Virus record (IMG/VR): IMGVR_UViG_3300021963_000134
Span: 1-62,000 of that record
Source of the DNA: a virus
Lineage: Duplodnaviria; Caudoviricetes
Direction: 5' to 3' (one strand)
Length of the DNA: 62,000 nucleotides
Shown in pieces: positions 2,937 through 42,285 of the stretch (within the stretch, counting starts at the first letter, position 1; every line of letters starts with the position of its first letter). Both the position numbers and the translations under genes were made by a program. Below the pieces are notes generated by a model that was given only the letters and a program-made list of their open reading frames with translations, was not told the origin of the DNA and did no database searches.

Positions 2937-3550
2937 GCGACGAGAAGCTGAACGCCAACACCACACTCGACAAAGTGCTCGGGTATGTGGACTCGCCGTT
3001 CAAGCTTTTCTCCCTGCTGTTGATGGCCGTCGTTGCCTTCGTGGGTTACTTCCTTTGGCAGAATCAGGAATTTATGAGGGACGCCTACAAGGAGTCCAAG
3101 AAGCTGCCCGAGATCAACACCACACGGGCTGATGAGGCGAGCGCTATGTTGTTTAAACAAACTGGCGCTGCTGTTGTTGCCATTTTCAAGGTCAATCCTC
3201 TGTTCAATTCCCGGGTGGTCTACAAGGCATACACCAAGGATGGCCGGGACAAGAGCATCGACGACATCGATGTGGGCCTGTTTACACACAGCACACCCAA
3301 CAATGACGATGTGGTTAAGCTGATGACCAACCAAATTCCTTGTGGCGCGTACCGATATGCGCAGTCCGAGGTGGGCCTCTGGTACATCGAGAAGGGTGTG
3401 GGATACACCTGCCGGGTGAGCGTTCCGCCAGACAGCCCTCGTTTTGTAGGACAGGTCACTGTTGGCTGGCCTCAAGAGCCAGAAAACTTGGAGCAGATCA
3501 AATTTATGCTGGAGATCGCCAGCGCAATGCTAACCAAAAGGGGTAACTGA
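2933..3550 (+). CDS. Membrane protein with one N-terminal TM and a soluble domain; resembles T4-type holin T (GAF-like)
   Basis: TM FSLLLMAVVAFVGYFLW; motifs GAAVVAIFKVNP and FVGQVTVGW recall holin T; lies in the lysis cassette. Confidence 0.4.
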   Translation: MSDEKLNANTTLDKVLGYVDSPFKLFSLLLMAVVAFVGYFLWQNQEFMRDAYKESKKLPEINTTRADEASAMLFKQTGAAVVAIFKVNPLFNSRVVYKAYTKDGRDKSIDDIDVGLFTHSTPNNDDVVKLMTNQIPCGAYRYAQSEVGLWYIEKGVGYTCRVSVPPDSPRFVGQVTVGWPQEPENLEQIKFMLEIASAMLTKRGN

Positions 3551-3551
3551 C

Positions 3552-4049
3552 ATGGAATGGCTTAAACAAATCGCACCGACCATTGCCACGGCGATGGGTG
3601 GACCGTTGGCTGGCATGGCTGTGTCGGCCATCTCCAAGGCCATTGGCGTGGACCCCGACAAGGTGGGTGACATGATCTCTAACAACAAGCTGACCGCTGA
3701 GCAAATCGCGCAAGTCAAGATTGCCGAGATTGAGTTGCAAAAGCAAGCGCAGGAGCTTGGCCTAAACTTTGAGAAACTTGAGGTGGAAGACCGCAAGTCA
3801 GCTCGAGAGATGCAAGCCACCACTCGCAGCCTGATGCCTCCATTGCTGGCTGGCGCTGTCACTGTCGGATTCTTTGGCATCTTAATCATGATGTTCATTG
3901 GCCAAGTGGACAGTAACAACCCGGCCATCCTGATGATGCTGGGCTCGCTTGGCACGGCGTGGACGGGCATCATTGCGTATTATTTCGGCAGCTCTGCGGG
4001 ATCGCAGGCTAAAACTGATTTACTTTCAAAGGCAGGACCAGTCAAATGA
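3552..4049 (+). CDS. Holin (3TM / gene-transfer-release type)
   Basis: APTIATAMGGPLAG start, DRKSAREM, two C-terminal TMs, YYFGSS motif; directly before the endolysin. Confidence 0.7.
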   Translation: MEWLKQIAPTIATAMGGPLAGMAVSAISKAIGVDPDKVGDMISNNKLTAEQIAQVKIAEIELQKQAQELGLNFEKLEVEDRKSAREMQATTRSLMPPLLAGAVTVGFFGILIMMFIGQVDSNNPAILMMLGSLGTAWTGIIAYYFGSSAGSQAKTDLLSKAGPVK

Positions 4050-4636
4050 CAGAAGACCAACTCAAAGAGATGCACATCGACCCGGCTTGGCTTGAGCCAC
4101 TGACGGCAGCATTCAATCGTTTTGACATCAGCACCCCTGAGCGCCAAGCCGCATTCATCGGCCAGTGCGCCCATGAGTCCGGCAACTTCAAGACCCTGCA
4201 GGAGAACCTCAACTACAGCGCCAAGGGTTTAAACGCCACTTGGCCAAGCCGTTTCCCATCCGAGGAGGCGGCGCAGCCGTTCCACCGCAACCCTGAGAAG
4301 ATCGCCAACAAGGTGTACTCCGGGCGCATGGGCAACACCGAAGAGGGTGACGGCTGGAAGTACAGGGGCAGGGGTCTGATCCAGTTGACCGGCAAGGACA
4401 ACTACCGTCTTGCTTCTGACGCCTTAGGGGTGGACTTTGTGGCCAATCCCGACTTGGTTCTGACGCGGGAGTACGCAGCCCTTACGGCTGCTTGGTACTG
4501 GAACAAGCGCGGTTTAAACAAGGAGGCGGATGCCAAAGACTTCACCGGGATGACAAAGAAGATCAACGGTGGGACAATTGGGCTCGCAGACAGGGTTGCG
4601 CATATCAACACCGCCCTCAACGTCTTAACCGCTTGA
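4046..4636 (+). CDS. Endolysin, glycoside hydrolase family 19 (chitinase-like)
   Basis: AAFIGQCAHES, ENLNYS, GDGWKYRGRGLIQLTG, TKKINGG motifs. Confidence 0.9.
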   Translation: MTEDQLKEMHIDPAWLEPLTAAFNRFDISTPERQAAFIGQCAHESGNFKTLQENLNYSAKGLNATWPSRFPSEEAAQPFHRNPEKIANKVYSGRMGNTEEGDGWKYRGRGLIQLTGKDNYRLASDALGVDFVANPDLVLTREYAALTAAWYWNKRGLNKEADAKDFTGMTKKINGGTIGLADRVAHINTALNVLTA

Positions 4637-16800: not shown

Positions 16801-19800
16801 GAACCGTCTTGAATGACATGGACGAGAAGTCTGCCGCAGCGTTTATCCGAGCATATGACGAAGCGTTCCACTCAAGGAACTATCGTATTGTTACGCCAGA
16901 GGGTGGTTTTGGCGACTTGGTCAAGAACAATGACGGCACACCTTCCACAATGATGTGGTCAACTTACGGCCCAATTGAGAAGGCCGTCAGCATCTTCCGT
17001 GATGGAAGCCGTGAGAATGTGAGTCAGCAACTTGGCTTCGAGCACAAGATTCGTTCTTTCTACAACAACATTGCCAACCCCAACAGTGAGATTGATCACG
17101 TCACCATCGACACGCATGCCGTGGCTGCTGCGTTGTTTGAGGCTTTGGCTGGGACAGATACCGAAGTAACGCAAAACTTTGGCGGTACAGGCTCCTCTGA
17201 TGTACTTGGTGTTGGTGGCACATATGGCTTGATTGCTGATGCCTACCGAGAAGCTGCCAAGAAGGCTGGTGTTCGCGCCAGAGAGATGCAGTCCATCACT
17301 TGGGAGGCTGTCCGGGCGCTCTTCTCTGAAGAGGTCAAGTCAACCATCAAGCCAAAGATTCGCGCCGAATGGAAGAAATACAAAACCGGGCAGCAATCTT
17401 TTGACGAGACCCGCGACAACGTCTTGGAGATTGCAGGTCAACCCGATAAGCTTGATGAGCCAGACTGGATTGACTCCGGCGAAGGTCAGTTTGTGTCCGA
17501 TGGCGGCACAAGCTACGACAAGACGTTTACACCCACTGGTGGTGTTCGCCTGCGTGAATCACGAGAGATTCGTGAGAAGGTCACGTTTAACTTGTCGGCA
17601 GTAACCAACAGCATCCCGGGGCTGCGTGAGCTTTACAGCAAGGCCATGAAGGGTGATGACAAGGCTTATGAGTTGCTGCAAAAGGTTGCCGAAAGCTCCT
17701 TGCAGTATTTGCTCAAGGGCTCCGGCGCAAAGATCAAGATCGAATATTCCAAGGGAGTTTATCTTTCTGACCGTGAGCCATCAATCTCTGTCAGCGCCGC
17801 ATTTGACGAGAGCAATCAACGAGCCGTAATGGGCGCTCTTGCCAAGTTTGCAGAGAACTACAACCAGCAACAGATTCACGTCCGAGTCCCGACCATCCGT
17901 AAGCTTGGTTATGAGTTTGGAGATGGCTCTTACGCAACACCTGTGTACGAAATTCCGTTGCGCAAGAAATTGAACAACGCGCAGATTTCGGACATAATCA
18001 ATCAGACGGGTTTGCAAGGCTTCTCTGTCTCCGAGAGGCAAGTTGTTGCCGAAGGCAAGACAGTCACAGAAAACTTCTTAACCGCATACTGGGTAGCACC
18101 AAATGACATCGAACAAGAATTCGCAAGCTTCGACAGCTTCGAGCAAGCCATCCGGGCAGCACAGGCCTTGGCTGGAGTCGAGGGTTCAAAACCTAAACAA
18201 TCTGTTGAACGCCTCTACGTCTACGGCTCAGGACCGGGAGCAAGAATCTCCTACGAAGAAATACAAAGCGACATTCTTTCCCGAGACGGAACGGACACAG
18301 TCACGCCAAGGCTGATCTCCGAATACCTGAGGGGCGAACCCATAAAGGTGTTTAAACAAAAAGACCTGACCAACAAGCAGGTCGAAAGCCAGAAGCTACT
18401 GGCAAAAGTTTTTGACGAGCTCCCGACCAAGGATTTAAAGAACCCCTTGGTGCGCAGCGCTTACAACGCCTTGAACAAAGAGCTTGTACAGCAGTACAAC
18501 GCCATGCCAATCAAAGTCCAGCTTGTCGAGGGTCAGCGGGACGAGGATGGCAACTTCATTGACATCTACAAAAACAGCGCAGAGATGCGCAAAGATGTGA
18601 GTGACAACAACAGGTTCAAGGTTTACAAGACAGAGCCCGGAACATTTGGTCCTGAAGGTTTTAATTTCAAAGACCACCCGCTTTTAAAAGACTCTGGCGT
18701 CAAAGATGCAGATGGCAAAGCCATGCTGTTCAATGATGTGCTTCGCGCCGTCCACGACTACTACGCCCACAACCTTTCCGATATTCAGTTTGGCCCCAAA
18801 GGTGAGGCCGCTGCTTGGCGTAACCACATGTCCGTCACCGCCAACCCATTGGCTCGATGGGCGCTTACCGCTGAAACGCGGGCACAGAATGCGTGGCAGA
18901 ACTTCAGGGAGGGTGTAGAAGACGTTCCTCTTAAAGATCGCCCTTACGCCGATCAGAAGGCCATGCTGCCTCCAATCAACTTTACTTTTACGGGTGAAGA
19001 AGGCGTTGATCGCGTCATGGCAGACTACGCAGCAACTCTGACCCCCGAGCAGCAGCTTGGGAGCCTTCCGGCCAACAGTCAATATGCCACAGAAGTTAGA
19101 AAGCAAATGCCGAAGCTCAGCCTTCGCACGCACTTCTCATCCGTTAAGGCGGCAAAGGATGCCGCATCCGAAGCCAAAGTCCCAAAGACTGAAGAGTTTA
19201 AACGTTTCATTGCGGGCAACCAGTGGACAGATGCCGACGGAAACCCCAAGGTTTTCTATCACGCTACTGCACGAGAGTTCTTTGAGTTCACCCCCGCAGG
19301 TCAGTCGCAAGCAATCTTCTTGGCCGATACACCAGAAGAAGCCGAGACATTCGGCAGCATTGCCGAAGACCGTCTGCGCCGCGAAATCTATCGAGCCCTT
19401 GGTAAAGATGAGAAGCTAAACTTCTTCCAAAACATCGTAGATGCTCAAGTGAAGAACGGCTTCATGTCGGAAAAGCAAGGCTCTGACTTCATGCGTCAGG
19501 CCAAGCGCAAGGTTCCCGAGTACGGTGACTTTGGTGACATCGAGCAAGAGACCTACGACGCTCTGCTTGATCTGTCCCCTACCCGCATGTCAATCATGCC
19601 CCTGTACGCACGGGCAGAGACTCCATTCGAGTTCGAGAACCCAGACCATGTAGAGCAGGTCATGCAGTGGGTTGCCAACAACACAGAGTACCCTCAGGAC
19701 TTCCCAGACAAGTGGCTGGCAGGTATGAAGGGCCGCATCAAGCAGGGCCTGTGGCAAGCAATCGAAGACAAGCGTGTGCAGCAAGCTATTCGTGCCTTGG

Positions 19801-22487
19801 GGCATGACAGCTTCACCGTGCGAGAAAACCGCAACTCTCCCAAGAACTACGCCGTTTACACACCCGAGCAGGTGAAGTCTGCGACCGGTAACGTGGGCGA
19901 GTACAGCCGCGAGTCGAAGAACATCAAGTACAGCCTGCCAACCATCCCGCAAGATATTACCGACCGGATTAACGAAACTACATTTAAACGGCAGAAGAAA
20001 GGTTTTGCTGAGCGCATGATTGAAGCTATCTCTCCTCAGAGCGCCTCCAGCTTCCGGCAGCGTTACCTCAACCGCTACAACCAGATGTCGGTCTACGACA
20101 AGAAGCGAGCCGAGCAGATGGGTGGTGCAGCCCTTCTCGCAGACCAGAGCGCAGAAGCTGCGGCTTTGATGTCTGACCTTGGGGCAGGCATTGCAGCATC
20201 CGCTATGGGCATGGGGGATCGCAACGGCGGCATCCCAGTCCTTCGCAATGGCATCACGACCATCGACACCAGCGTCAAAGGAATGGTTGCCTCTCTGGCT
20301 CCTCTGGCGGCATATGGAGACCCGGTGGTCTTCCAGCAGTATCAGTACTGGGCCATGATCAAGCGCGGCGTCCGTTTAAACAAAGAAGGAAAGCTTACCG
20401 GTATCGACTCAGCCGACGTTGCATTCGCCAAGGCGTTGGAGCAGAAGTATCCAAAAGACTTGTTTGTAAACGTTCAGAAAGACTTGATCGCTTTCAACAA
20501 CGGCTTGGTCAAGTACATGGTGGATACAGGCGTTCTCTCTAAAGAACGTGCCCACGAATACACCAAGCATGCCGACTACATTCCCTTCTATCGTCAGATG
20601 GATGGGGATACGACTCTGGGGCCAAATCTCTTCCAGTCGCTGTCCGGGGTCAAGCCACCCAAGAAACTCAAAGGAAAAGACGTAGCCGAGGCTCCTCTGG
20701 CCGACTTCCTTGAGACCATGGTGCGCAACACTCAGTCAGCCATCCAAGCTGGCGTGAAGAACTACGCAGCCCAGCGAGCCATCAACGTGGCACTCCAAGT
20801 CAAAGCCCCGGGCATGGAGCTTGAGCGCTTGCCTGTGGCTTCGACAGAGCCGGATGTCATCAACGTCTTGGAAAAGGGAAAGCTTGTCTCTTACCGGACT
20901 GCGGACAGTTTGCTCATCGATGCAATGAAGAGCTTGAATCTGTCTGAGCTTCCCTTCATGGGCATTTTGTCTGCGCCAGCCGACTTGCTGCGCAACTTGG
21001 TGACCAAAGACCCCGGCTTCATGATGGCCAACTTGATGCGTGACTCAATGTCTGCGTGGGTGACTTCGGGCCAAAAAATGACTCCTATCGCAGGAACGGT
21101 CATCAACTTCGGCAAGGCTCTTACCCGCAACTCTCCCGGCTTCGAGGCCATGCTGAACGCTGGCATCATCGGCGGCTATGAGTTCAGTGCCAACGTCGAG
21201 CAGTCCGGGTTTAAACTTGAAGAGGACTTGAAACGCAAAGCGGGCAAGCGCGACGACTCCATCTTGCTTCGCCCGTTTAAATCCTTATGGGATGCGCTGG
21301 AGACCGGAACAACCGCCTCTGATGCTGCCACCCGCGCCTTGATCTACGAGCGTGTGCTGGCTGATACAGGCAACGAGGCTGAGGCCTTGTACCGATCCCT
21401 TGAAGTGATGAACTTCCACCGCAAGGGTAACTCTGCTTTGATCCGAGTGCTGACTGCCACCGTCCCGTTCTTTAATGCCCGTCTGCAGGGTTTGGATTTG
21501 TTCTACCGTGCCTCTACAGGCAACATGAACAACAAGGATGCTGCCTCTATCCAGCGTCAGTTCTTTGCCCGTGGCATGACCATGATGGCTCTGTCGGCTG
21601 CCTACTGGTTCATGGTCTCCGATGATGAGGAGTACAAGAAGCAGGAGCAGGAGACCCGGGACAACAACTGGATCATCCCAAGCTTGGGCATCCGCATCCC
21701 AATTCCTTTCGAGGTGGGTGTGTTGTTTAAAGTGATCCCTGAGCGGATTGCTGCCTACACATTCGGTGACGACACTGGGCAAGACCTGCGTGACTCCTTG
21801 TTCCGCAACGCCGTTGCCACATTTGCGTTTAACCCAACCCCGCAGATCATCAAGCCAATTGCCGAGGCTGTGGTTGACTTCAACCCGTTTACATGGCGAT
21901 CAATTGTCAGCAAGGGCATGGAGGATGTCGAGGCCAAGTATCAAGTCGGCCCAAGCACATCCGCTTTTGCAACAATGATTGCTCAAAACTTGGGTCTGTC
22001 ACCCATAAAAGTGGATCACATCATCAAGGGCTACACCGGAACCATCGGTATGTACGGCATCGACTTGATCGACATGGTCTTGGATCAGTTCGGCGACAGC
22101 CCCAAGCCAACCAAACGGTTTGAGCAGCTTCCCGTGATCAAGCGGTTTGCTCTGGATGAAGAAGCGCGGGGTTACGTCACTCAGTACTACCAGCTCAAAG
22201 ACGCAGTGGACACGACCGTCAGGACGATGAACCTGCTGGAGAAGACTGGTGAGTCAGAGGAGTATGTGAAGTACCTGACTGAGAATCAGGGGACTCTCGC
22301 CTTCAAGGACTACATCCGGGATACCGAAAAGGTCATGAAGGAATACAGGGAGATGCGCCTTGCGATTCGTTCCTCGCAGATGACTGGAGATGAGAAGCGA
22401 GACGCCCTGCTCGAGATCAGCAAAGCAGAGAGCGCCGTCACTTCCCAAATCCAGACCATCAAGAAGGCTATCGCTTCAGTCCAATAA
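13818..22487 (+). CDS. Large polyvalent (injected) protein: HExxH metallopeptidase-like, helical glycosylase-like, ADP-ribosyltransferase-like and LPD38-like domains
   Basis: 2889-aa ORF with RHESLHAL, WY..AAMSPQ..VTIDTHA, VFYHAT..IFLAD..PEQVKSATGN and C-terminal PFFNARLQG..RIPIPFE motifs. Confidence 0.7.
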   Translation: MAENFWEKDTVAEPAGEWWSQDKVAKESETTAISDEAKKRTVGEAIKDVGAGLVSGAGSLVQLPGQLYGLATGDFSKTGALGLGEDISKYGEEMKSAGLKAREAERAAKIQEAEKEGQFAAFKAGFGETITDPALFASFIAEQVPNILPMILTGGATAALTAGRASAAALAKGATKEAAADAGKIAAAKAGTTAAVQTGAVMQGSDIGAGSYDEIYNELLAQGRSEEEAAAETINKARAAGLTGYGFSLLANKYLPGGKALEEILAGKKITGSRIGSGVVTGVKEIPSENIEEVGGRIAQNVAAQQAGLDRELLAGTGETAALATLGAAGIGGAAGALAPRQIGPEPIKTPESVDAFEKEKAEFRKQFGQAEPVAPTAETAEAPVEREPEPVEPPTEFPGGYTATRREISRQDVPESFGIFAEGSDKPLTTVSSQEEVDKKIQSLTEIRQQEQERLMAEGDKIMKPIEEARRKLEVMEATGKANTDEYVQAKALLTQQEQAADDRFAEIFAEINSYSAPLTSAPIGTRTDVQNEFVVNRGNEPIGVFPTLEQAEATLREREPEVFKQAEVAARTQELEKTLKPMLAKFNLGDVGLNIVEKLENNAGGSYLDSLIRVSLEEANPIQTMRHESLHALKDLEFFTPQQWNALTERANKDWLVQLKKTPYEEGVSRYDAYLDMFTKEGQAKGLQGPELEQYANEALVEEAIADAFGAYDRGATPPPGMIAALFKKLKNFFMNFGQALRGAGFESADDVFQRVERGELKSRKPKAEKAAPKAESKEKPEEKAEKPEQTMGDRLSLLRKAYPDEIDISTQNPQGVKRIYDPITEMLSIDEAAVREAMKANPKMAQKTIQAIKSYGFIPDGTPNNKVLELFRENIVNNLMFLYNKVPASIRNRSKLWYDGANKIADEMANNYDMSLRQIAAIMAAMSPQKDWFQNVSMAERAIDVLKKQGDQAWTPDMLKYAESYVKETKDRKEREKRQDAFEKIKKVAKSGTVLNDMDEKSAAAFIRAYDEAFHSRNYRIVTPEGGFGDLVKNNDGTPSTMMWSTYGPIEKAVSIFRDGSRENVSQQLGFEHKIRSFYNNIANPNSEIDHVTIDTHAVAAALFEALAGTDTEVTQNFGGTGSSDVLGVGGTYGLIADAYREAAKKAGVRAREMQSITWEAVRALFSEEVKSTIKPKIRAEWKKYKTGQQSFDETRDNVLEIAGQPDKLDEPDWIDSGEGQFVSDGGTSYDKTFTPTGGVRLRESREIREKVTFNLSAVTNSIPGLRELYSKAMKGDDKAYELLQKVAESSLQYLLKGSGAKIKIEYSKGVYLSDREPSISVSAAFDESNQRAVMGALAKFAENYNQQQIHVRVPTIRKLGYEFGDGSYATPVYEIPLRKKLNNAQISDIINQTGLQGFSVSERQVVAEGKTVTENFLTAYWVAPNDIEQEFASFDSFEQAIRAAQALAGVEGSKPKQSVERLYVYGSGPGARISYEEIQSDILSRDGTDTVTPRLISEYLRGEPIKVFKQKDLTNKQVESQKLLAKVFDELPTKDLKNPLVRSAYNALNKELVQQYNAMPIKVQLVEGQRDEDGNFIDIYKNSAEMRKDVSDNNRFKVYKTEPGTFGPEGFNFKDHPLLKDSGVKDADGKAMLFNDVLRAVHDYYAHNLSDIQFGPKGEAAAWRNHMSVTANPLARWALTAETRAQNAWQNFREGVEDVPLKDRPYADQKAMLPPINFTFTGEEGVDRVMADYAATLTPEQQLGSLPANSQYATEVRKQMPKLSLRTHFSSVKAAKDAASEAKVPKTEEFKRFIAGNQWTDADGNPKVFYHATAREFFEFTPAGQSQAIFLADTPEEAETFGSIAEDRLRREIYRALGKDEKLNFFQNIVDAQVKNGFMSEKQGSDFMRQAKRKVPEYGDFGDIEQETYDALLDLSPTRMSIMPLYARAETPFEFENPDHVEQVMQWVANNTEYPQDFPDKWLAGMKGRIKQGLWQAIEDKRVQQAIRALGHDSFTVRENRNSPKNYAVYTPEQVKSATGNVGEYSRESKNIKYSLPTIPQDITDRINETTFKRQKKGFAERMIEAISPQSASSFRQRYLNRYNQMSVYDKKRAEQMGGAALLADQSAEAAALMSDLGAGIAASAMGMGDRNGGIPVLRNGITTIDTSVKGMVASLAPLAAYGDPVVFQQYQYWAMIKRGVRLNKEGKLTGIDSADVAFAKALEQKYPKDLFVNVQKDLIAFNNGLVKYMVDTGVLSKERAHEYTKHADYIPFYRQMDGDTTLGPNLFQSLSGVKPPKKLKGKDVAEAPLADFLETMVRNTQSAIQAGVKNYAAQRAINVALQVKAPGMELERLPVASTEPDVINVLEKGKLVSYRTADSLLIDAMKSLNLSELPFMGILSAPADLLRNLVTKDPGFMMANLMRDSMSAWVTSGQKMTPIAGTVINFGKALTRNSPGFEAMLNAGIIGGYEFSANVEQSGFKLEEDLKRKAGKRDDSILLRPFKSLWDALETGTTASDAATRALIYERVLADTGNEAEALYRSLEVMNFHRKGNSALIRVLTATVPFFNARLQGLDLFYRASTGNMNNKDAASIQRQFFARGMTMMALSAAYWFMVSDDEEYKKQEQETRDNNWIIPSLGIRIPIPFEVGVLFKVIPERIAAYTFGDDTGQDLRDSLFRNAVATFAFNPTPQIIKPIAEAVVDFNPFTWRSIVSKGMEDVEAKYQVGPSTSAFATMIAQNLGLSPIKVDHIIKGYTGTIGMYGIDLIDMVLDQFGDSPKPTKRFEQLPVIKRFALDEEARGYVTQYYQLKDAVDTTVRTMNLLEKTGESEEYVKYLTENQGTLAFKDYIRDTEKVMKEYREMRLAIRSSQMTGDEKRDALLEISKAESAVTSQIQTIKKAIASVQ

Positions 22488-23076: not shown

Positions 23077-23751
23077 CTAGTCTTCAAGGTTGAACTTTGG
23101 AATACCGTCCGGCTTGTACTCTTCTGTGAGCTGCTTGAGTACTGTCGCTCTTTGCGGGTGCTTAAGCTTGCGCAAGGCCTTGCATTCGATCTGCCGGATG
23201 CGCTCTCTCGTAACTTCTAGGACTTGTCCTGTTTCTTCTAGGGTGTGCTCCTCGCAGCCGATGCCGTAGCGTAAACGCAGGACCTTTTCCTCTCTTGGTG
23301 TTATTGAGGCCAACTGCTCCTCAATGAGTTTTTGGATGTCCTTTTCCTCCATAACCTCCTCTGGTGATGGGGCAACCAGTAGCAGGGCCTCTTCTGCGTT
23401 TATACCAAGCGCAGCACGCATACCATCAAGGTTCACATCCCTTTCGGCGCTGTTGTGCCTGAGCTTTAACGTGAGCTGCTCAGATGTCCATAGATCGGTT
23501 GGTGCCAAACAGAGAAACTCCATCAGACTCTTTGCACCTTCGCTGAACTCTCCTGTAACCAACAGAGGTGGGTTCTTCATGGTGATCAGGCCGCTTAGTG
23601 CGGTCGATGTCATGCCAGCTTCTCTGCAAAACGCAGCCGCACTCCTGTAACCAGCTTTCTCAATGGCCGTCAGGATCAGGTTATTTTTTACCGTTACCTT
23701 GACACGGTATTCATTCACCAGTTCGTAGTCAAAATCATCCTCTTTGGTCAT
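23077..23751 (-). CDS. HTH plus sigma-70 region 4-like protein
   Basis: C-terminus TPREEKVLRLRYGI..HTLEETGQVLEVTRERIRQIECKALRKLKHP closely matches RpoD region 4. Start moved to the ATG at 23751 (GAGGA RBS, overlaps upstream stop). Confidence 0.8.
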   Translation of the reverse strand: MTKEDDFDYELVNEYRVKVTVKNNLILTAIEKAGYRSAAAFCREAGMTSTALSGLITMKNPPLLVTGEFSEGAKSLMEFLCLAPTDLWTSEQLTLKLRHNSAERDVNLDGMRAALGINAEEALLLVAPSPEEVMEEKDIQKLIEEQLASITPREEKVLRLRYGIGCEEHTLEETGQVLEVTRERIRQIECKALRKLKHPQRATVLKQLTEEYKPDGIPKFNLED

Positions 23752-24074
23752 ATCTTCCTCCACAAGACTTTGGGTGAACCGTTGGATGACTTGGCTGCTG
23801 CAAATCCAGCAGAGACGATCAGTCCATCCTTCTGGCAACGCTTGGCAATGTGGCCCCAAGCCCTGCCGTCAGGTGCGCTTGGTAGTCCATAGGACTCAGC
23901 AAACACCCGGGCCTCTTCCGTCAAGAATGGTGACTGCGCCTTCTTTGCAAACTCAGCAAACATGGCAACAGCCCTCAAAGTCCAGTCATCGATCTCACGG
24001 TCTGCTCGTTCAGCCGAGGCCTGTGCTGCAGCGTGGCCCTTCTCTGATGGTGTAAACAAATCTGGTTGTTTCAT
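23748..24074 (-). CDS. Hypothetical protein (winged-helix-like)
   Basis: ATGA-coupled; RAWGHIAKR..GLIV..G motif. Confidence 0.5.
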   Translation of the reverse strand: MKQPDLFTPSEKGHAAAQASAERADREIDDWTLRAVAMFAEFAKKAQSPFLTEEARVFAESYGLPSAPDGRAWGHIAKRCQKDGLIVSAGFAAAKSSNGSPKVLWRKI

Positions 24075-32288: not shown

Positions 32289-32723
32289 ATGACTGACATC
32301 TGCAATGATAGTGATGATACAACAGAATTGCAATCCCTTGCACAAATTATTTTTGGTGAGCCAGCATCAAAGGCCAACAGCCGGAGGGTTGTGAAGTTCG
32401 GGTCAATGTCCCGTCTCATCAAGAGCCAGAAGGCGTTGGATTACTCAGATGTGTTTAAACAGCAATGCAAACCGCTGGCCAAGCTCATGACGGGAGACCT
32501 GAGAGTTACTCTCTGGATTTACTACGCCAGCCGAAGGCCAGACTTGGATGAGTCATTGATCCTCGACCTGATGCAGGGGCTGGTCTACGAGAACGACCGG
32601 CAGGTCAAAGAGCGCCATGCGTACTGGGGTCTTGATCCTGAGAACCCAAGGGCAGAGATACTGGTGGAGAAGATTGAAGAGATCGCCCCCAAAAAGAAAC
32701 CCCAGCGCAAAGGCCGGGGTTAA
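32289..32723 (+). CDS. RusA-like Holliday junction resolvase
   Basis: GEPASKANSRR, RRPDLD..LILDLMQG..YENDRQV, DPENPRAEI; start uncertain. Confidence 0.8.
   Translation: MTDICNDSDDTTELQSLAQIIFGEPASKANSRRVVKFGSMSRLIKSQKALDYSDVFKQQCKPLAKLMTGDLRVTLWIYYASRRPDLDESLILDLMQGLVYENDRQVKERHAYWGLDPENPRAEILVEKIEEIAPKKKPQRKGRG
32305..32333 (-). promoter_or_regulatory. Sigma-70 promoter for the leftward recombination/accessory operon
   Basis: Minus strand TTGCAA-N17-TATCAT, about 35 nt upstream of the ATG at 32269. Confidence 0.6.
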
Positions 32724-32873
32724 AGGAGAAGCAACTGCAAGGGGGAGAAACCCTGCGGCGTCAGTGTAAACGAAATCACCTTGGCCGGTTAGCGTGACGG
32801 CAAGCAGGCTCACCCGGTGAGCTACTACGTTTAAACGCAGCATGAGTCGAGTTAAGAAAAACAACCGTGAGTG

Positions 32874-32909
32874 CAGGGGTAACAGGGGTGGCAAGGGTGG
32901 CAAGCGTTT
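32874..32909 (+). repeat. Four imperfect 9-bp tandem repeats
   Basis: CAGGGGTAA CAGGGGTGG CAAGGGTGG CAAGCGTTT. Confidence 0.5.
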
Positions 32910-33004
32910 AAACACCTGTCATGCCAAATCAGCGATTTCAAAGGACAGACATCGCCTTGCCGATGACGTAAGGGTTTCCCCTCACGAACGTTCGCAATCT
33001 TTTC

Positions 33005-33033
33005 TTGCAAGCTCCAATAAGCTGTGATACAGT
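33005..33033 (+). promoter_or_regulatory. Sigma-70 promoter for the ncRNA/replication operon
   Basis: TTGCAA-N17-TACAGT with TG extension. Confidence 0.6.
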
Positions 33034-33040
33034 TTGTCCT

Positions 33041-33177
33041 GCTAGGTGTGGAAACCAAGCGAAGTGAAAGCCGTTAGATAAGACTCCGACCCCGTATGGG
33101 GTAGCGTCCTCCACAAGGGGATGTTTTTCCACCGGGGTCTTTTCTAACGGCTTTTTTTCGTCTGTACTTTCCACACC
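33041..33177 (+). ncRNA. C4/CI-like antisense or attenuator RNA
   Basis: Long stalk (33067-88 with 33133-54) carrying two hairpins and followed by a T-run; TTCCAC and TTTCCACACC are complementary to the upstream loop GGTGTGGAAA. Confidence 0.5.
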
Positions 33178-33250
33178 CCGCCGTACTCCGCACGACAGCA
33201 GGGGCCGCAAGTGGGGCCGCTCGGAAGTAAACCGCGACACGGTATGCAAT

Positions 33251-33392
33251 CGTGGATTTGGTGATGGTGAATGCGCAGGCTGATGCGCAGTAAGCTGGGG
33301 TGGCATGGTTACGTCCGAGTAGACAGTGCCGAAATAATCCCCCGCCTCGGAGAAGCCGGAGATCAGCACCGGCCACCATCACCAAGTCCATG
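33251..33392 (+). ncRNA. Structured RNA domain with kissing loops
   Basis: 19-bp closing stem with two G-U pairs; hairpin loops GCTGAT (33279-84) and ATCAGC (33362-67) are complementary. Confidence 0.55.
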
Positions 33393-33570
33393 AGCTAGGG
33401 GGCAGTTCCCGAAGAATCCGTGCGGCTGGTCGCATCATCAAGCCGAGGGTAGACGGTGAGAATCCGTCACATGATGATCCTGCTTTGCAGGGGTGGAACC
33501 TTCCCCTTCTCCTCACATCCCGTGGGGTAGGGGGTCTTTGGGTGGAAATTATCCATCCGGCGGAGGAGAG

Positions 33571-33804
33571 ATGGAAAGCATCGAATACTACAAGGCTGTA
33601 GCCAGCGAACTCAGGGAGCATCTGGATTACAGGAAGAGGAAGCCACTCCTGTGGCTGACCAAACAGGAAGCTTCATTGCTCCTCTCTGCAAACAGGCAGT
33701 GGGGAATTGATGAAAACAAATTCCGAGCGATTTACAGGGAGATACAGAAAAAGGTGACAGAGATCAACCGCAGAGAGAACCAACCAACCAAAGAGGAAAT
33801 ATGA
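33571..33804 (+). CDS. Hypothetical protein
   Basis: GGAGGAG RBS before MESIEYY. Confidence 0.55.
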   Translation: MESIEYYKAVASELREHLDYRKRKPLLWLTKQEASLLLSANRQWGIDENKFRAIYREIQKKVTEINRRENQPTKEEI

Positions 33805-34465: not shown

Positions 34466-34706
34466 TTACAAGGCCGAGTACGCCAACTACGATGGCACAC
34501 CCGAGGTCAAGAAGAAGAGAGCGCAGAGAAACAAAGCCCGAAGAATGCTGGAGCGTGAAGGGGTAGTGAAGAAAGGTGACGGCAAGGATGTCGATCACAT
34601 GACCCCTCTCAGTAAAGGCGGCACATCCGCCCGCAGTAACCTCAAGGCCAAGCCCGCATCGGCCAACCGCTCGTTTAAACGAACCTCTACCGGGGCCATC
34701 AAATGA
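34458..34706 (+). CDS. Small HNH-fold protein
   Basis: RDYKAEY..RAQRNKARR..GDGKDVDH..PLSKGG...NL.....ANR. Confidence 0.75.
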   Translation: MRDYKAEYANYDGTPEVKKKRAQRNKARRMLEREGVVKKGDGKDVDHMTPLSKGGTSARSNLKAKPASANRSFKRTSTGAIK

Positions 34707-36397
34707 TCGAAGCGCTCGTAGCGGATACATACTTCAATGATTCGACACGGGTGATCTGCCCCTTCTGCACTCCAGACCGCAGAAAACAAAACGTCAAGGA
34801 CATGACCCTCACCCGCAAGAGTGACGGGGCCGTTGTCTATCACTGCCATCACTGCTATGCATCGGGTTCAGTACAACCCAAGGAGAACAAATTGTCAGCA
34901 GTCCCAGCCGCAACAATCGTCAACAACAGGCTCACCCATCAACATTACCAGTGGCTCAAGTCACGGGGCATATCGGAGATCACAGCAGATGCCATGCGTC
35001 TGTTCTCAGCGGAGAAGTTCTTCTCCCGTCTCAGCAAACCCACACAGGCCATCGGTTTCCCCTACTACCGCAGTGGGGCGCTGGTCTCAGCGAAGTACCG
35101 AAGCATTGAGGCCAAGGACTTCACCCAAGACGCAGGAGGAGCGCATGACTTCTTTGGCATCGACAAGGTAGAGAAGGGCCAGCCTCTGATCATTGTGGAA
35201 GGCGAGATGGATTGCCTGACTGCCATTGAGGCGGGTATCGCCAACGTGGTCAGTGTTCCCGGCGGCGCTCCCGTCAAGGTCGCAGATGGCAAGGTACTAC
35301 CCACAGAGGACAAGAAGTTTGGGTTTGTCTGGAATGCCCGAGAGATCATCGATGCCGCACCCTATGTCATCCTTGCCACAGACCAAGACCCTCCCGGTCA
35401 AGCACTGGCAGAAGAGTTGGCAAGGCGCATCGGCAAAGAGAAATGCAGACTCGCCAAGTTCGGGTGGAAGGATTTAAACGAAGCATGGATGGACGACGAT
35501 CCGACGGCAGACGACACACCGACTGAACGTTTAAACAAGATCATCAATGACGCCGAGCCGTACCCCATCAACGGTATCTCAGAGGCAACGGCTTACCTCG
35601 ACAAGATCAATGACCTCTACACCAAGGGATCGGGTAAAGGGTTCAGCACGGGGTATCCATCGGTGGACAACATCTACACAGTCGCACCGGGGCAGTTGAC
35701 TGTGGTGACGGGTTACCCTTCCAGTGGTAAGTCGAACTTTGTTGATCAGTTGATGGTCAACCTCGCAAGGACATCGGATTGGAAGTTTGCGGTCTGCTCG
35801 TTTGAGAACCAACCCGAGGTTCACATCACCCGTCTCATGGAACTCTACTCGTTTCAATCCTTTTACGAAGGCCGAGACAGGATGAGCGAGAGCGCAAAGA
35901 TGGATGCGTTTAAATGGGTCAATGAGCATTTCCTTTTCATCGACACCAACGGCGAAGAACCCAGCACCCTTGAGTCGATCCTGACAAGGGCGAAGGCGGC
36001 AGTCAAGAGAATGGGGGTGCGTGGTCTGGTGATTGACCCGTACAACTACATTGAAATGCCGGGGTCGGATAAGACGGAGACGAATGCCATCAGCGACATC
36101 CTGACGAAGGTCAAGAAGTTTTGCATGGCTCATGATGTACACACATGGTTTGTCGCCCATCCAAGCAAGATCAATCGCTCTGGTGTCGAACAGCCCCGTC
36201 CAGACGGGATGTCGATCAGTGGTTCGATGGCGTGGTGGGCGAAGACAGACTGCGGGTTGACCATCCATCGGAAGGACAACTACACGGAGTTGGCAGTCTG
36301 GAAGTGCCGCTACCGCTGGGTAGGGACACAAGGGGAAACAACCCTGATCTTCAACAAGACGGCAGGGACATACTCAGAGAATCTGGATATGTTTTAA
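34703..36397 (+). CDS. DNA primase-helicase (T7 gp4/Twinkle-like)
   Basis: Zn finger CPFC..CHHC, TOPRIM IVEGEMD..ATDQD, Walker A GYPSSGKS, LVIDPYN, VAHP. Confidence 0.92.
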   Translation: MIEALVADTYFNDSTRVICPFCTPDRRKQNVKDMTLTRKSDGAVVYHCHHCYASGSVQPKENKLSAVPAATIVNNRLTHQHYQWLKSRGISEITADAMRLFSAEKFFSRLSKPTQAIGFPYYRSGALVSAKYRSIEAKDFTQDAGGAHDFFGIDKVEKGQPLIIVEGEMDCLTAIEAGIANVVSVPGGAPVKVADGKVLPTEDKKFGFVWNAREIIDAAPYVILATDQDPPGQALAEELARRIGKEKCRLAKFGWKDLNEAWMDDDPTADDTPTERLNKIINDAEPYPINGISEATAYLDKINDLYTKGSGKGFSTGYPSVDNIYTVAPGQLTVVTGYPSSGKSNFVDQLMVNLARTSDWKFAVCSFENQPEVHITRLMELYSFQSFYEGRDRMSESAKMDAFKWVNEHFLFIDTNGEEPSTLESILTRAKAAVKRMGVRGLVIDPYNYIEMPGSDKTETNAISDILTKVKKFCMAHDVHTWFVAHPSKINRSGVEQPRPDGMSISGSMAWWAKTDCGLTIHRKDNYTELAVWKCRYRWVGTQGETTLIFNKTAGTYSENLDMF

Positions 36398-38620: not shown

Positions 38621-40228
38621 TTAAGCCGCAAGCTTGATTTGTTTAAACGAAACAGCACCGATGTCGGCGATGTCTTTCACTGCCACGGCGTTGCCGTAGA
38701 TGCCAGAGACATCGGACATGATGCCGACACCAATGGTTGTCACACCCAGTGCGTTGCCGGACTGGATTTGTTGGCGAACCCCAGCGGGGTTGCCGTACCC
38801 GTCAGTGATCACAAAGACCAGCTTGCGGTGTTCATTGCGCCTTGCCAGCAACTCATGCGAGTAGCGCAGGGCGGTGTAATCGTTTGTCCCACCAGCAGAG
38901 GTGACACGCCCGATCAGGGTGTTGGCTTTGCGATGGTTCATGCCGAAGGGCTTGATCTCAAACACGGCAGACCCGAAGGCCACAACAGCAGTCTTGACCC
39001 CAGCCGCATCAAGCGTTTCCAGCAGGGCACGGCACGTTGCAACAGCAGGGCCAATGCGAGGCTTCTTGCCGTTGTCGCAGTCGAACATCGAACCGCTGAT
39101 GTCCAGCAAAACCACAACCGCAGAGTCCACGCCCTCCACATCGAGGCGGCGTTTAAACACACGATCGTTGCCAGTGGCCACGGATGGCAGGGCATGGACG
39201 TTGACCACACCAGCCTTGCGGTTGCGGTTGAACTCAGTCAGACCTGAGTTGTCAAACAGGCGCTTGACCTCATACCGAAGCTTTGCAGGGACAGGCGCAG
39301 TCACCAGACCCTCCCGCTCGGTGTCTCGCAGGACAGCACTGCCCTCTCGGATTTGCTCGGAGGTGTAGTTACCCATCACCCCACCGCTGGGCAGTTTGGG
39401 CTCAACCTCCCTTGCCTCAACATCGACAGGTGATTTGACAGGTGCGTCAGGGGCTGGGGGAGCCTCTTTGCTCTCTTCCGCACCCTTACCCTTATCCTCA
39501 CCCTGATCGGGGCTTGTAGGCCCATCCTGACCATTTGTAGGGCCATCCTTGGGCTTGCCGGGGCGCTTGGGTTCATCCTTTGGTCGGCTGGGCTTCTGAC
39601 TCTCCTGCTTGATCTGCTCATAAACCCACTGAGCAATCTTCAGGGTGTCGGTGCTGGATGTGGCGCTTTCGCACTTCACAGCCGCCATCTCAAAGATGGC
39701 AGTCAGGCGGGGGTTGCAAGGAACCTTGACGGCGGCGTGTTTACGGCAAGCCACTGCGAGGATGTAGGGATACTGGCGAGGATCGTTCCAGTCCTTGACC
39801 GATGCCAATGCCTCACGGGTCATGCCATCGATCAACTCACCCAGCAGGGGGCCGATGTTGCCCAGCAGACCAGAGGCAATCCCGGTGTTCTCGATCCAGC
39901 CATCTTCCACAGCGTTGTGCAGGGTCTGGACGTACTGGTTGTCACCCCTCGCATGGAAGTCGGTGTACTTGTGGTGCAACAGTTCATGCACCACATAACC
40001 CGCATACTTGACCACAAGGGCACGGCTCACCGTGGAATCGTCAGGGATGCCAGCAAGGTACAAGTTGCCATGATCATTGATGCCAGCAGTCTGGATGTCG
40101 TGCCTCCAGTAGACACGCACACTGCTCAGAGCCAAGGACTTGCCCACCTTGTGGGCGAAGGCCTCCAGACCCAAGCGGAACTCAAGACCACGGACGGAGG
40201 GGCGCGAGAGAATGGTTTCGATGTTCAT
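38621..40228 (-). CDS. vWA (MIDAS) protein with N-terminal HExxH domain, CobT-like
   Basis: VHELLHHKYT; LLDISGSM, GGT, FVITDG; revised start MNIETIL. Confidence 0.85.
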   Translation of the reverse strand: MNIETILSRPSVRGLEFRLGLEAFAHKVGKSLALSSVRVYWRHDIQTAGINDHGNLYLAGIPDDSTVSRALVVKYAGYVVHELLHHKYTDFHARGDNQYVQTLHNAVEDGWIENTGIASGLLGNIGPLLGELIDGMTREALASVKDWNDPRQYPYILAVACRKHAAVKVPCNPRLTAIFEMAAVKCESATSSTDTLKIAQWVYEQIKQESQKPSRPKDEPKRPGKPKDGPTNGQDGPTSPDQGEDKGKGAEESKEAPPAPDAPVKSPVDVEAREVEPKLPSGGVMGNYTSEQIREGSAVLRDTEREGLVTAPVPAKLRYEVKRLFDNSGLTEFNRNRKAGVVNVHALPSVATGNDRVFKRRLDVEGVDSAVVVLLDISGSMFDCDNGKKPRIGPAVATCRALLETLDAAGVKTAVVAFGSAVFEIKPFGMNHRKANTLIGRVTSAGGTNDYTALRYSHELLARRNEHRKLVFVITDGYGNPAGVRQQIQSGNALGVTTIGVGIMSDVSGIYGNAVAVKDIADIGAVSFKQIKLAA

Positions 40229-40235
40229 ACAGACC

Positions 40236-41696
40236 TTACAGAAGTTGGTTGATGGTTGTCTCGCTGATGCAAGACAGGTAGATGGCAGTGAGACCGGGGA
40301 GGGACTCAACTGGTTGACGGGCGGCAATGGTGGATGCCCAAGCCTTGTCCACGGGCAAGACCCGCAGGGCACGAACAAACGCAATCACAGACCGAATGGA
40401 AGGGGCATCGATGACCTCGCCTGTCTGCACCTTTTCACGGGCCACACGCACAGCGTCAAGGATGTGGGCGGCAAGCTTCATGTTGCACCCTGTGTGGCGC
40501 ACAACAGCGTCCACCTCGGACATGATGGGCAGGTAATCGAACTGCACCACACGGGCGAAGCGATCCACAAGGGCGCTGTTCATCTGGCGAGTCCCGGCGT
40601 AGCGTCCAGAGTCATCACCATTGCCCAAGGTGTTGTCGGCGGCAAAGACCAGCACACCGGGGGCACGGGTCTGGACAGACCCACCGAATGACACGGCGCT
40701 GTTGGGCTCCAAGAACCCGTTCAGCGGGGCCAGTTCGCCGGGGTCTGCGTTGGTCACTTCATCCAGCAGGATCACGGTGGACGGGTGCGTGAAGGCGGCA
40801 AGGAAATCACCACGCTTGAACACGGTCTGACCATTCTCCAAACCCACTGCACCGATGTAGTCCTCGGCACTGGTGTACTTGTGGAAGTTGATGCGTTTAA
40901 ACGCACGGCCTGTCATGGCGGCAAACTGACGGGCGGTCTCGGACTTGCCAGTGCCCTTTGGCCCACCGAACCAGACGTTTTCACCCAAGTCCTGCGAGAG
41001 GATCAGGTGCTGGAGGATGTCGGCAGTCCAGATGAAGCAGGGGTCAACAGCCGGGGCGGTTGGGTCATTCCAGATGTCCACCTTGAGCGGGTCACCCTTG
41101 CGATCCAGCACCTCGACACCAAAGACCTCCAAGCAGGGCTTGGTGTCCACCACATGGACAGAGGCAAGGTCTGCGACCACAGCCTGTGCGCCAACGGCCT
41201 CGACTGCTTTTCGGAAAGGTGCGAAGGCATCAGCGACAACCTTGTTGACAGCATCTTCTACCTTACGGTCATCAATCTTGGTCTCGCCAAGCTTTTTGGC
41301 GATGGCCCGAATCTCGGTGCGCAGGGTGTCATCATCCTGAATCCGGGCGTTGCGATCATCTGCCAACTCATCGGACAGTTTCTGGTGTGACCTCTTCACG
41401 GCCTCGATGGCCTTGAGGGCGGCGGCTTCAGCACGGTTTGCAACAGACCCCACGGCATCGACAGCGGCGGTGTCCACCGCAGGGCCAGTCTGGAACGGGC
41501 CAGAGGGGGCGGCGGCTTTGATGTCGGTCAGGGTGATGTTGTTGGCCTGAACACAAGACGCCAACCAATCAGCGGCCTTGGACTTTTGCTCGGCAGGTGT
41601 CCCGGTCAGGGGATGAGGTGAGCGGGATGCATAAGCACCCAGCACAGTGGTGATTGGAAGCTTGAGAATTTCGATTTTGATTTGCAGGGCGTTCAT
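40236..41696 (-). CDS. MoxR/CbbQ/CobS-like AAA+ ATPase
   Basis: GPKGTGKS, ILLDE, NTLGNGD..GRYAG...NSALVDRF. Confidence 0.88.
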   Translation of the reverse strand: MNALQIKIEILKLPITTVLGAYASRSPHPLTGTPAEQKSKAADWLASCVQANNITLTDIKAAAPSGPFQTGPAVDTAAVDAVGSVANRAEAAALKAIEAVKRSHQKLSDELADDRNARIQDDDTLRTEIRAIAKKLGETKIDDRKVEDAVNKVVADAFAPFRKAVEAVGAQAVVADLASVHVVDTKPCLEVFGVEVLDRKGDPLKVDIWNDPTAPAVDPCFIWTADILQHLILSQDLGENVWFGGPKGTGKSETARQFAAMTGRAFKRINFHKYTSAEDYIGAVGLENGQTVFKRGDFLAAFTHPSTVILLDEVTNADPGELAPLNGFLEPNSAVSFGGSVQTRAPGVLVFAADNTLGNGDDSGRYAGTRQMNSALVDRFARVVQFDYLPIMSEVDAVVRHTGCNMKLAAHILDAVRVAREKVQTGEVIDAPSIRSVIAFVRALRVLPVDKAWASTIAARQPVESLPGLTAIYLSCISETTINQLL

Positions 41697-41709
41697 GTCA
41701 GGTCTCCGT

Positions 41710-42285
41710 TTAAACAAGGTTCAGGGTGTCGGAATCGACAGGGCAGGAAGGAAGGCCAAGGGCGGCCCATTTGCTGGTGAGGCGCACGGTGTACCCGCAG
41801 GACGGGCACACTGCCTTGAGCATGCGAGTGGTCTGCACTTTCTTGGTGCTCATGGTCAGGGCGGCATGAGGGTATGGGCCAAGCGAGTCCACGATTGCCC
41901 CGAAGGTGGGGAGGAACTCAGGGCCACGGGCAGTGGCTTTCCAGCCATCCACAGGGGTGGCCTCAAGGTGCATCAGGGCGGCAACCTTTTGGAAGTTGAC
42001 CCCGTGGTTCATTGCCCCGGCAGTCGAGTGGCACAACTCATGCACCAACACCTCGAAGACATCGATTGGATTGGCAAGCTTGGGGTTGATGAGAATTTCG
42101 AAGGTCTTGTCAGCAGAGGCGGTGTCTGCCCAGCACTGACCAAGTGCGCCAGTGCGATTGGCCCCCAGCGGGAAACCACAGGCCACGCGAACGTTCGCAG
42201 GGAGTGGCTTGCCAATTGCATCAAAGAAGGGGCGCAGTTCACTCACGGCGGCTGAAAGCCAGTCTTCACGGTTGTTGATTGTCAT
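41710..42285 (-). CDS. SprT-like zinc metallopeptidase with C-terminal Zn ribbon
   Basis: VLVHELCH..NHG..F; KAVCPSCGYTVR..PSCP. Confidence 0.8.
   Translation of the reverse strand: MTINNREDWLSAAVSELRPFFDAIGKPLPANVRVACGFPLGANRTGALGQCWADTASADKTFEILINPKLANPIDVFEVLVHELCHSTAGAMNHGVNFQKVAALMHLEATPVDGWKATARGPEFLPTFGAIVDSLGPYPHAALTMSTKKVQTTRMLKAVCPSCGYTVRLTSKWAALGLPSCPVDSDTLNLV

Follow-up and report, generated by a model that had tools for sequence, protein, structure and literature searches.

The window, by which we mean the whole stretch of DNA that was analysed, is the complete 62-kb virus record IMGVR_UViG_3300021963_000134 of IMG/VR (Duplodnaviria; Caudoviricetes). Its genes include those for terminase, portal and virion proteins and for a polyvalent protein of 2889 amino acids (aa). 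A leftward block encodes a sigma-70 region-4 protein, the single-strand annealing protein Sak and a PD-(D/E)XK nuclease, and a rightward block starts at a RusA-like gene (32289-32723) and reaches a T7-gp4-like primase/helicase (34703-36397). The subject of this report, a predicted non-coding RNA gene, is located in the gap of about 840 nucleotides (nt) between the RusA-like gene and the next ATG, at 33571.

A first inspection of the letters alone, the original prediction, had singled out 33180-33560 as a large structured RNA of about 380 nt. The comparative analysis shows 33040-33558 (+) as a single predicted non-coding RNA gene of about 515 nt, of which the stretch singled out before is the greater part. 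The structured RNA therefore stands, but its start does not: the unit begins about 140 nt further upstream, near 33040. We set its limits at about 33040-33558 because the conserved core is preceded by a rod-like 5' domain, with a promoter directly upstream of the outer helix of that domain. The predicted gene is shown by the same comparisons to consist of three modules: the rod-like 5' domain, a core of about 230 nt and an optional tRNA-like domain. Folded as a whole, 33180-33560 gives z = -2.97 on the + strand and z = -2.33 on the - strand.

Retrieval of the RNA family

The primase/helicase was used as a handle to gather 65 related viral loci, which were compared by blastn and MAFFT. Two parts of the RNA, 33181-33246 and 33395-33552, are conserved among them, and a profile of the conserved part finds the core in 22 of the 65. 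The exact 15-base motif at the 3' end is present in at least 119 further IMG/VR stretches, nearly all of them true full matches. Full-length copies in IMG/VR number at least 117, at least 89 of which are distinct; counts over 88 or 89 loci in this report refer to the distinct copies among the matches listed. These 89 comprise 69 short forms (222-252 nt) and 20 long forms (338-430 nt), and the copy in the window is a long one. A longer motif gave at least 120 metagenome stretches, and the covariance model R1 matches all of the 80 loci listed (69 complete, of which 5 have the length of a long form, and 11 truncated at the end of a contig). For the window, the R1 match covers 33181-33558 and scores 200.8 bits (E = 3.6e-69).

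The copies come from uncultured phages of freshwater, wetland and wastewater. In cellular genomes, sampled as one per species over 185,579 species, the exact motif occurs once, on a 7.8-kb contig of a betaproteobacterial metagenome-assembled genome (MAG), G001. R1 matched none of 150 other genomes of the same class, so that G001 is alone among 151. We found no full-length copy in 50,697 GenBank phage records. As judged from these searches, the RNA family is shown to be restricted to phages, with the exception of the one MAG contig.

Structure of the core

The helices and motifs of the core are as follows, in window coordinates.

33181-33246 (+), 5' part of the core, with the conserved start CCGUACUCC; from the R1 match, pair counts and mutual information
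33187-90/33222-25 (+), helix P1 (UCCG/CGGA), by covariation
33202-06/33215-20 (+), hairpin P2
33213-14/33232-33 (+), pseudoknot PK1, joining the loop of P2 to the strand that follows the A-rich tract; covaries
33224-31 (+), A-rich strand
33238-42/33418-22 (+), helix P3 (CACGG/CCGUG), by covariation
33395-33552 (+), 3' part of the core; from helix counts, mutual information and alignment
33398-33410 (+), hairpin P3b
33423-27/33441-45 (+), helix P4 (CGGCU/AGCCG), pseudoknotted with P5
33434-40/33472-78 (+), helix P5 (AUCAUCA/UGAUGAU); covaries
33452-68 (+), hairpin P6
33479-91 (+), hairpin P7
33491-98 (+), GGGUGGAA motif
33500-14 with 33522-34 (+), C/U tract paired with G tract, with GC/GU changes only
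33530-44 (+), conserved 3' motif GGGGGTCTTTGGGTG

The core was modelled on an alignment of the 69 short forms (A1). RNAalifold gives 40 pairs for A1, 19 of them compensatory, and a mutual-information scan with helix-by-helix counts added three helices, P1, PK1 and P4, resulting in a model of 58 pairs. In this model, 96.9% of the cells are standard pairs, as compared with 83.0% in shuffles, and 34 of the 58 pairs change on both sides, as compared with 12-18 in controls with slid partners. Covariation scores 0.400 in the model and at most 0.097 in the controls. The core has at least nine covarying helices and two pseudoknots, PK1 and P4/P5, both of which covary. Since G-U pairs are frequent, the + strand is the folded RNA strand. 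In the short forms, hairpin P3a ends in a GNRA or UUCG tetraloop. Furthermore, many unpaired nucleotides in the core junctions are conserved, and the conservation has a sharp boundary at 33181.

Two pairings in this region had been proposed from the window alone. That of ATCATCA with TGATGAT is helix P5, and the relatives bear it out by covariation. CCGCACG (33188) and CGTGCGG (33419) are complementary in the window copy, yet the covariation puts their bases in other helices, P1 and P3, and the helix is not kept in L013, L015 and L020; we rejected it. The G tract that was noted at the end of the region is present, at 33522-34, with the C/U tract as its partner. RNAalifold also proposed a closing helix, ACUC/GGGU (A1 columns 5-8/261-264). 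It is invariant and conflicts with the covarying P1, which is changed on both sides in L130 and L159, and it was rejected as well. Covariation was sought by eye, and none was seen, between the U-run of the 5' domain and the A-rich strand 33224-31, between the spacer before 33181 and the conserved CUGGUCG, and between CCGUAC and the upstream UACG.

A separate observation concerns two GGGUG(A/G)A motifs, at A1 columns 198 and 266 (window 33495 and 33545). These columns covary, being A/A in 56 copies and G/G in 12, though they are unable to pair. Both motifs might contact one ligand or one third strand, or the pattern may reflect shared ancestry.

The tRNA-like domain

In the long forms, the tip of the core hairpin P3a carries an extension, with the following parts in the window.

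33247-33394 (+), optional tRNA-like extension at the tip of P3a
33251-69/33374-92 (+), acceptor-like stem of 19 base pairs (bp); covaries
33272-89 (+), D-like hairpin; covaries
33355-73 (+), T-like hairpin; covaries
33279-83/33363-67 (+), loop-loop (elbow) pairing; covaries

This is the domain that the original prediction had described as a long stem enclosing two hairpins with kissing loops. The 19-bp stem was recovered independently, as a 20-nt inverted repeat with 90% complementarity, and the loops of the two hairpins, GCUGA and UCAGC, are complementary as claimed. The segment 33247-33396 folds at -71.4 kcal/mol (z = -5.86), and none of 200 shuffles is as good. When the 20 long forms are aligned, they share a stem of 12-19 bp, a two-base linker (AA or UA), the D-like hairpin, a variable middle, and the T-like hairpin adjoining the 3' arm. 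Across 19 distinct relatives, 89.8% of the cells of the domain are paired, as compared with 79.2% in shuffles, and 24 of its 39 pairs change on both sides, as compared with 4-11 in slid controls. The loop-loop helix is paired in 81% of the cells, with changes on both sides in four of its five pairs; the first kissing pair (66/213) is GC in 6, AU in 5, GU in 3 and UA in 3. Compensatory changes thus maintain all of these parts, namely the stem, the two hairpins and the pairing between their loops, in keeping with the tRNA-elbow-like geometry that had been suggested. The two marks of a tRNA-like elbow, a contact of D-loop and T-loop and a T arm stacked on the acceptor helix, are both seen in the domain, the former in the loop-loop helix and the latter in the T-like hairpin that directly adjoins the 3' arm.

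The resemblance to tRNA is closer in some relatives than in the window. A near-canonical T arm is found in L077, L083, L110 and L179, and the last three also have a GCUC..GAGC D stem. The domain of L083 matches the Rfam tRNA model (RF00005) with 33.7 bits (E = 1.8e-5, model positions 1-71), above the gathering score of 29; the D-loop holds 51 inserted nt, and the anticodon arm is short. The window's own domain had no tRNA match up to E = 10 in the Rfam scan and none by ARAGORN, and ARAGORN called no tRNA in the domains of the relatives. Because L083 passes and the window copy does not, we call the window domain tRNA-like by homology of position and architecture, and not a tRNA. Transfer-messenger RNA, standard or permuted, was also not found by ARAGORN; the sole trace is a T-arm match of 12.8 bits to permuted transfer-messenger RNA in L083.

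What the extension shares with tRNA and tRNA-like structures is an acceptor-type stem of 7 bp stacked on the T arm, a linker of the U8/A9 type, a D stem, and the contact between D-loop and T-loop. Known tRNA-like examples are mascRNA at the 3' end of MALAT1 and the tRNA-like half of bacterial YrlA RNAs. Unlike in tRNA, the acceptor helix of the extension runs on to 12-19 bp and is closed. There is no free acceptor end with discriminator and CCA; in the window, the closed 19-bp helix is continuous with P3a. Also unlike tRNA, the extension has large D-loop insertions, and its anticodon arm is missing or short: a 5-bp anticodon stem with a 7-nt loop is absent, there being no anticodon arm in the window and a shortened one in L083. 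The window copy further departs from tRNA in its 9-nt T-like loop and its loop-loop helix of 5 Watson-Crick pairs. Since the acceptor-type helix is closed, these domains are mimics rather than tRNAs, which agrees with one of the options offered at the outset, a tRNA mimic.

The kissing-loop domain is real, but it is not the heart of the RNA, since it is an optional accessory present in 20 of the 89 distinct copies. In the closest relatives, with flanks that are 97% identical, a loop of about 9 nt takes the place of 33247-33394, and L010 and L015 have an altered form of the domain. The arm is present or absent between near-identical phages, such as the window and L003, or L015 and L013, and it thus behaves as an exchangeable accessory.

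The 5' domain, promoter and 3' end

The remaining features of the RNA gene lie on either side of the core.

33005-33033 (+), sigma-70-type promoter, TTGCAA, 17 nt, TACAGT preceded by TG
33045-33177 (+), 5' domain, a rod of about 135 nt with a three-way junction
33045-54/33168-77 (+), outer helix P0; its arms differ between relatives and stay complementary
33067-88/33133-54 (+), long stem, tipped by hairpins 33090-33101 and 33105-33123
33152-58 (+), U-run, inside a helix
33540-33558 (+), terminal hairpin GGGUGGA/UCCAUCC, specific to the window's subgroup, with no U-run after it

From this promoter, which is of the host type and near consensus, we infer that transcription starts near 33040. A promoter match of at least 9/12 is found at the same place in 24 of 41 relatives with this 5' domain, as compared with 1 of 41 shuffled controls, and the match is 11/12 in 14 of the 41. 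The window promoter itself matches at 8/12, with the TG of an extended -10 in addition.

The minimum free energy (MFE) of the 5' domain is -75.7 kcal/mol (z = -9.85; 0 of 200 shuffles), and 28 relatives share a consensus fold of 29 pairs, with compensatory change in 17. Most loci have a long stem and a U-run ending 15-25 nt before the core, and the type of rod seen in the window is found upstream of the core in 58 of 88 loci. The stem and its run of 7 U (33067-33158) have the look of an intrinsic terminator; in the MFE fold, the U-run pairs with an A/G-rich 5' strand. Because P0 covaries and spans the U-run, functional transcripts would have to read through it into the core.

At the 3' end, the next gene follows the terminal hairpin directly, with a ribosome-binding site at 33562-70 and its ATG at 33571, and relatives have other hairpins at this end of the RNA. 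By a strict, ungapped rule, a hairpin with a T-run lies within 140 nt downstream in 14 of 88 loci, a count that is a lower bound and does not decide between action in trans and in cis, since more loci have imperfect terminators by eye. In many related loci (e.g. L102, L139 and L070), a recurring promoter-like element, TTGAC..N17..TGTTAGACT, stands behind a terminator at 40-120 nt past the RNA, and in some loci terminator and promoter both precede the next gene. This element looks like an early promoter type of the whole family.

The 5' domain also occurs apart from the core. It is 82% identical in the GenBank phage MW202545, and R1 finds no core in six loci that have this domain only (L002, L031, L032, L059, L023 and L025). 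At L002 (MW202545.1), positions 3340-4440 contain six tRNA-like genes, then a TTGACA..TATAAT promoter, a copy of the 5' rod domain and a different non-coding stretch of about 230 nt. This stretch stands at the position of the core, has no match to R1 and is annotated in GenBank as two hypothetical proteins; it may be a second, unrelated core. The P1-P2 part occurs on its own in two loci, L049 and L309 (MW202753), with 39-43 bits to R1. In L309 (MW202753.1, 3001-3130) and in L049 (4207-4344), the P1-P2 subdomain (CCGUACUCCG...GGAAGGAAAGC) is joined to other 3' sequence, which suggests that the core itself is modular. In MW202753, this fragment lies within the coding sequence of an annotated hypothetical protein. 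GenBank thus annotates pieces of this RNA as 'hypothetical protein', namely the 5' domain in MW202545 and the P1-P2 fragment in MW202753.

Coding potential and known RNA families

None of the overlapping open reading frames (ORFs), including two ORF clusters that recur in relatives, has a match in Pfam or PHROG. A stop-free frame across the core is present in only 26 of the 89 distinct copies, and the length differences between copies are evenly spread modulo 3. We rejected a protein-coding function on the missing Pfam and PHROG matches and the few open frames, in agreement with the initial impression that the stretch lacks a credible ORF.

Scans with Rfam 15 at the gathering thresholds, over the whole window and eight related loci, gave no match to any family, GOLLD, ROOL, OLE and raiA included. 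Permissive scans of window 32650-33650 and of the insertion-free L013 gave only chance-level matches, of at most 22.5 bits. A covariance-model search and covariation across homologues had been named at the outset as the checks to make on an uncharacterised functional RNA; with no Rfam family matched and the family supported by covariation, that description holds. Our literature search, which took in 2026 preprints and did not extend to the supplementary tables of the IMG/VR catalogue (PMC10690425), found no description of this RNA. That catalogue, from 2023, gives 8,495 candidate structured RNAs, and its supplementary tables may list this one. Because there is no match in Rfam 15 with or without the arm, and no description in the literature so covered, we count the family as new within a known kind: the family is new, and the kind, phage-borne ornate RNAs, is already known.

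Neighbouring genes and signs of transcription

The genes that flank the RNA vary by phage group. Upstream genes are RusA (31/89 loci), Sak (31/89) and the PD-(D/E)XK nuclease (30/89), and the primase/helicase is downstream in 22 of the 89. Another phage group has a Toprim primase-like gene upstream (21/89) and a 2OG-Fe(II) oxygenase gene downstream (16/89). Seven of the 89 loci have tRNA genes within 4 kb, all of which are on the strand of the RNA and within about 400 nt.

Metatranscriptome contigs from four runs in three studies lie on the RNA region of relatives, and include the short-form joints 33246>33395. They are weak support for transcription, since carry-over of DNA is not excluded. 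Parts of 32762-32977 have no contig cover in all four runs; we draw nothing from these gaps, because contigs give neither RNA ends nor levels.

Proposed role of the RNA

Large bacterial or phage RNAs with so much conserved tertiary structure are, to our knowledge, rare, and OLE, GOLLD, ROOL, HEARO and raiA are the ones that we would name. Each of these brought new biology or striking structures. The present RNA has the marks of the ornate phage RNAs, being phage-encoded and large, with more than one pseudoknot and an association with tRNA genes. By analogy, we favour on balance, with somewhat more confidence than doubt, the reading that it is of one kind with GOLLD and ROOL, a stable phage RNA that is made early and acts in trans. 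Such an RNA would be transcribed by the host RNA polymerase early in infection, together with the phage tRNA genes where these are present, and would fold into a compact and stable molecule acting in trans and not on the neighbouring genes. The tRNA-like arm would then be an accessory handle or passenger and not the functional centre. It might serve to attract RNase P or other enzymes that act on tRNA, for processing, or it might be a decoy or an excised passenger. We infer the role in trans from the flanking genes, which differ by group, and from the loci where a terminator and a fresh promoter follow the RNA.

GOLLD and ROOL, according to one report (10.1101/2024.12.08.627333), are carried by phages or prophages, in many cases close to tRNA islands, and the linker of GOLLD sometimes holds tRNAs. 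The present RNA resembles GOLLD in being encoded by phages, in its size, in its many helices and pseudoknots, and in the adjoining tRNA genes, and GOLLD was first seen in lake metagenomes. Unlike GOLLD, which has more than 800 nt, it has about 370-560 nt and an unrelated secondary structure, with no covariance-model match at the thresholds tried, and its tRNA-like unit is a closed helix set on the tip of a hairpin. With ROOL (Rumen-Originating, Ornate, Large), it has in common the phage or prophage origin, the location near tRNA genes, multiple pseudoknots and no known protein partner. It differs from ROOL in its fold and in its habitat of freshwater, wetland and wastewater, and shows no match to the ROOL model.

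Several points weigh against the GOLLD/ROOL reading. The analogy is one of context only, since there is no covariance-model similarity. The RNA lies in a replication and recombination region, which would also fit the function of an origin. The window and many relatives have no terminator between the RNA and the downstream genes, so that it could be a long 5' leader. Most of the copies were fetched with the 3' motif as bait, and the invariance of this motif in A1 and the uniformity of the family are therefore partly built in; in a set that was retrieved independently, the exact motif is present in 13 of 15 copies. Finally, the core structure was tested on the alignment from which it had been derived, and this favours it over the slid partners, although the margin is large.

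An alternative that we consider unlikely, while taking it seriously, is that the RNA acts at the replication origin of the phage as a pre-primer or R-loop RNA, much as one option of the original prediction had it. The G-run segment 33522-34 would stay hybridised to the template and give a 3' end for DNA synthesis, and the displaced + strand would offer primase sites. Replication genes do adjoin the RNA in two unrelated contexts, the primase/helicase downstream and the Toprim primase-like gene upstream, a strong promoter is directly upstream, an iteron-like repeat block (32829-32913) lies 150 nt upstream, and a highly conserved block with two G-runs is followed by a T-rich and then an A/T-rich stretch. 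GGGTC and TGGTC, which we take to be recognition sites of the T7 gp4 primase, occur in the conserved stretches. ColE1 RNA II, the R-loop origins of phage T4 and primer formation at mitochondrial CSB II are analogies, and they share with this RNA a promoter-driven structured transcript, a G-run segment and adjoining replication genes. They are not known, however, to have a pseudoknotted core or a tRNA-like arm, and the double-pseudoknot core, the GNRA/UUCG caps and the optional arm exceed the needs of any known primer RNA. Furthermore, the G tract has an internal partner in the C/U tract, one unchanged motif occurs with different primases in different phage groups, and the co-oriented adjoining tRNA genes suggest a stable-RNA operon. 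GC skew marks no origin here; it follows gene orientation across the window, and we rejected it as an origin marker. We rate lower, as improbable, a cis-acting leader of the rightward early operon, in which a structured 5' untranslated region of about 530 nt would regulate the genes from 33571 onward at the level of read-through, stability or translation, perhaps by sensing a ligand or tRNA. The window RNA runs into the ribosome-binding site and ATG (33562-33573) with no terminator between, 74 of 88 loci have no strict terminator within 140 nt, and a terminator-like stem and U-run follow soon after the promoter. However, this U-run would hardly be a free terminator tail, since it is paired within the rod, around which P0 closes. 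From one phage group to another, the genes that follow the RNA have no relation to each other; in several loci, a terminator and a further TTGAC..TGTTAGACT promoter precede the next gene, and no riboswitch or leader family was matched in the Rfam scans.

We are equally doubtful of a self-processing ribozyme, with the core cleaving the transcript, for example, at the junction of the 5' domain and CCGUAC or beside the tRNA-like arm. The size of the RNA, its two pseudoknots, the many conserved unpaired nucleotides in the junctions and the sharp conservation boundary at 33181 are what such a ribozyme could look like, and the strand order of P4, P5 and P6 is like that of P7-P3'-P8-P7' in group I introns. 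Against this, no ribozyme family in Rfam was matched, and there are no flanking exons. Because only 6 nt separate the 5' strands of P4 and P5, there is no equivalent of the P4-P6 domain; together with the absence of an Rfam intron match and of an interrupted gene, this sets the RNA apart from group I introns. Least probable by far is a mobile origin of the 148-nt stem domain, as a miniature inverted-repeat element (MITE) that has landed in the intergenic region, with the stem as its terminal inverted repeats. Its ends are inverted repeats, and the closest relatives do lack exactly 33247-33394. However, the tip of P3a bears homologous domains in divergent relatives too, the arms covary and use G-U pairs, the interior holds tRNA-like D and T arms, and no target-site duplication is visible at the junction. 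We rejected the MITE on the same-site homologous domains, the covarying arms and the tRNA features inside.

A bolder proposal, which we offer tentatively and hold to be unlikely, is that the core represents a new protein-free class of large functional RNA, a ribozyme or a self-assembling RNA-only particle like the GOLLD/ROOL cages. Virulent phages of freshwater would encode this RNA and express it early, from a consensus promoter; in certain lineages, the RNA would present a tRNA mimic, joined to it covalently, that serves as substrate, as cargo or as a decoy against host defences that target tRNA.

The family is abundant, with at least 89 distinct copies in IMG/VR and at least 80 metagenome loci. 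The RNA is compact enough for structure work, at about 370 nt without the arm, and its two pseudoknots are backed by covariation. The natural versions with and without the tRNA-like arm are a ready-made experiment on the role of the arm, and the RNA bears on why phage-borne ornate RNAs travel with tRNA genes. If it were an origin primer instead, it would represent a new, highly structured type of transcript-primed phage origin.

Other features of the window

Just upstream of the RNA promoter, a 10-bp perfect inverted repeat (GTTTAAACGC / GCGTTTAAAC) flanks three overlapping G-rich 9-mers (32873-32901). The closest relative, L003, lacks most of this iteron-like block at 32829-32913. The RusA-like gene ends in a hairpin at 32698-32721, with 9 pairs followed by TCTTTTT, that was called as a minus-strand terminator and stands amid converging or overlapping signals; the region around it has only weak matches to Rfam models resembling small RNAs (at most 22.5 bits). 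At the other end of this gene, the RusA-like ORF (+) and the PD-(D/E)XK nuclease ORF (-) overlap as listed by 134 nt (32289-32422). One of the two probably starts further in, and divergent early promoters should lie here.

Elsewhere, the polyvalent protein of 2889 aa (13818-22487, +) has ADP-ribosyltransferase, DUF7178 and LPD38 domains, and the protein with sigma-70 region 4 (23077-23859, -) has 260 aa. Inside the rightward block, 38621-41717 on the - strand encodes an AAA+ ATPase of the MoxR type and a protein of 587 aa that has a VWA domain at its C-terminus; the two form a CobS/CobT-like pair.

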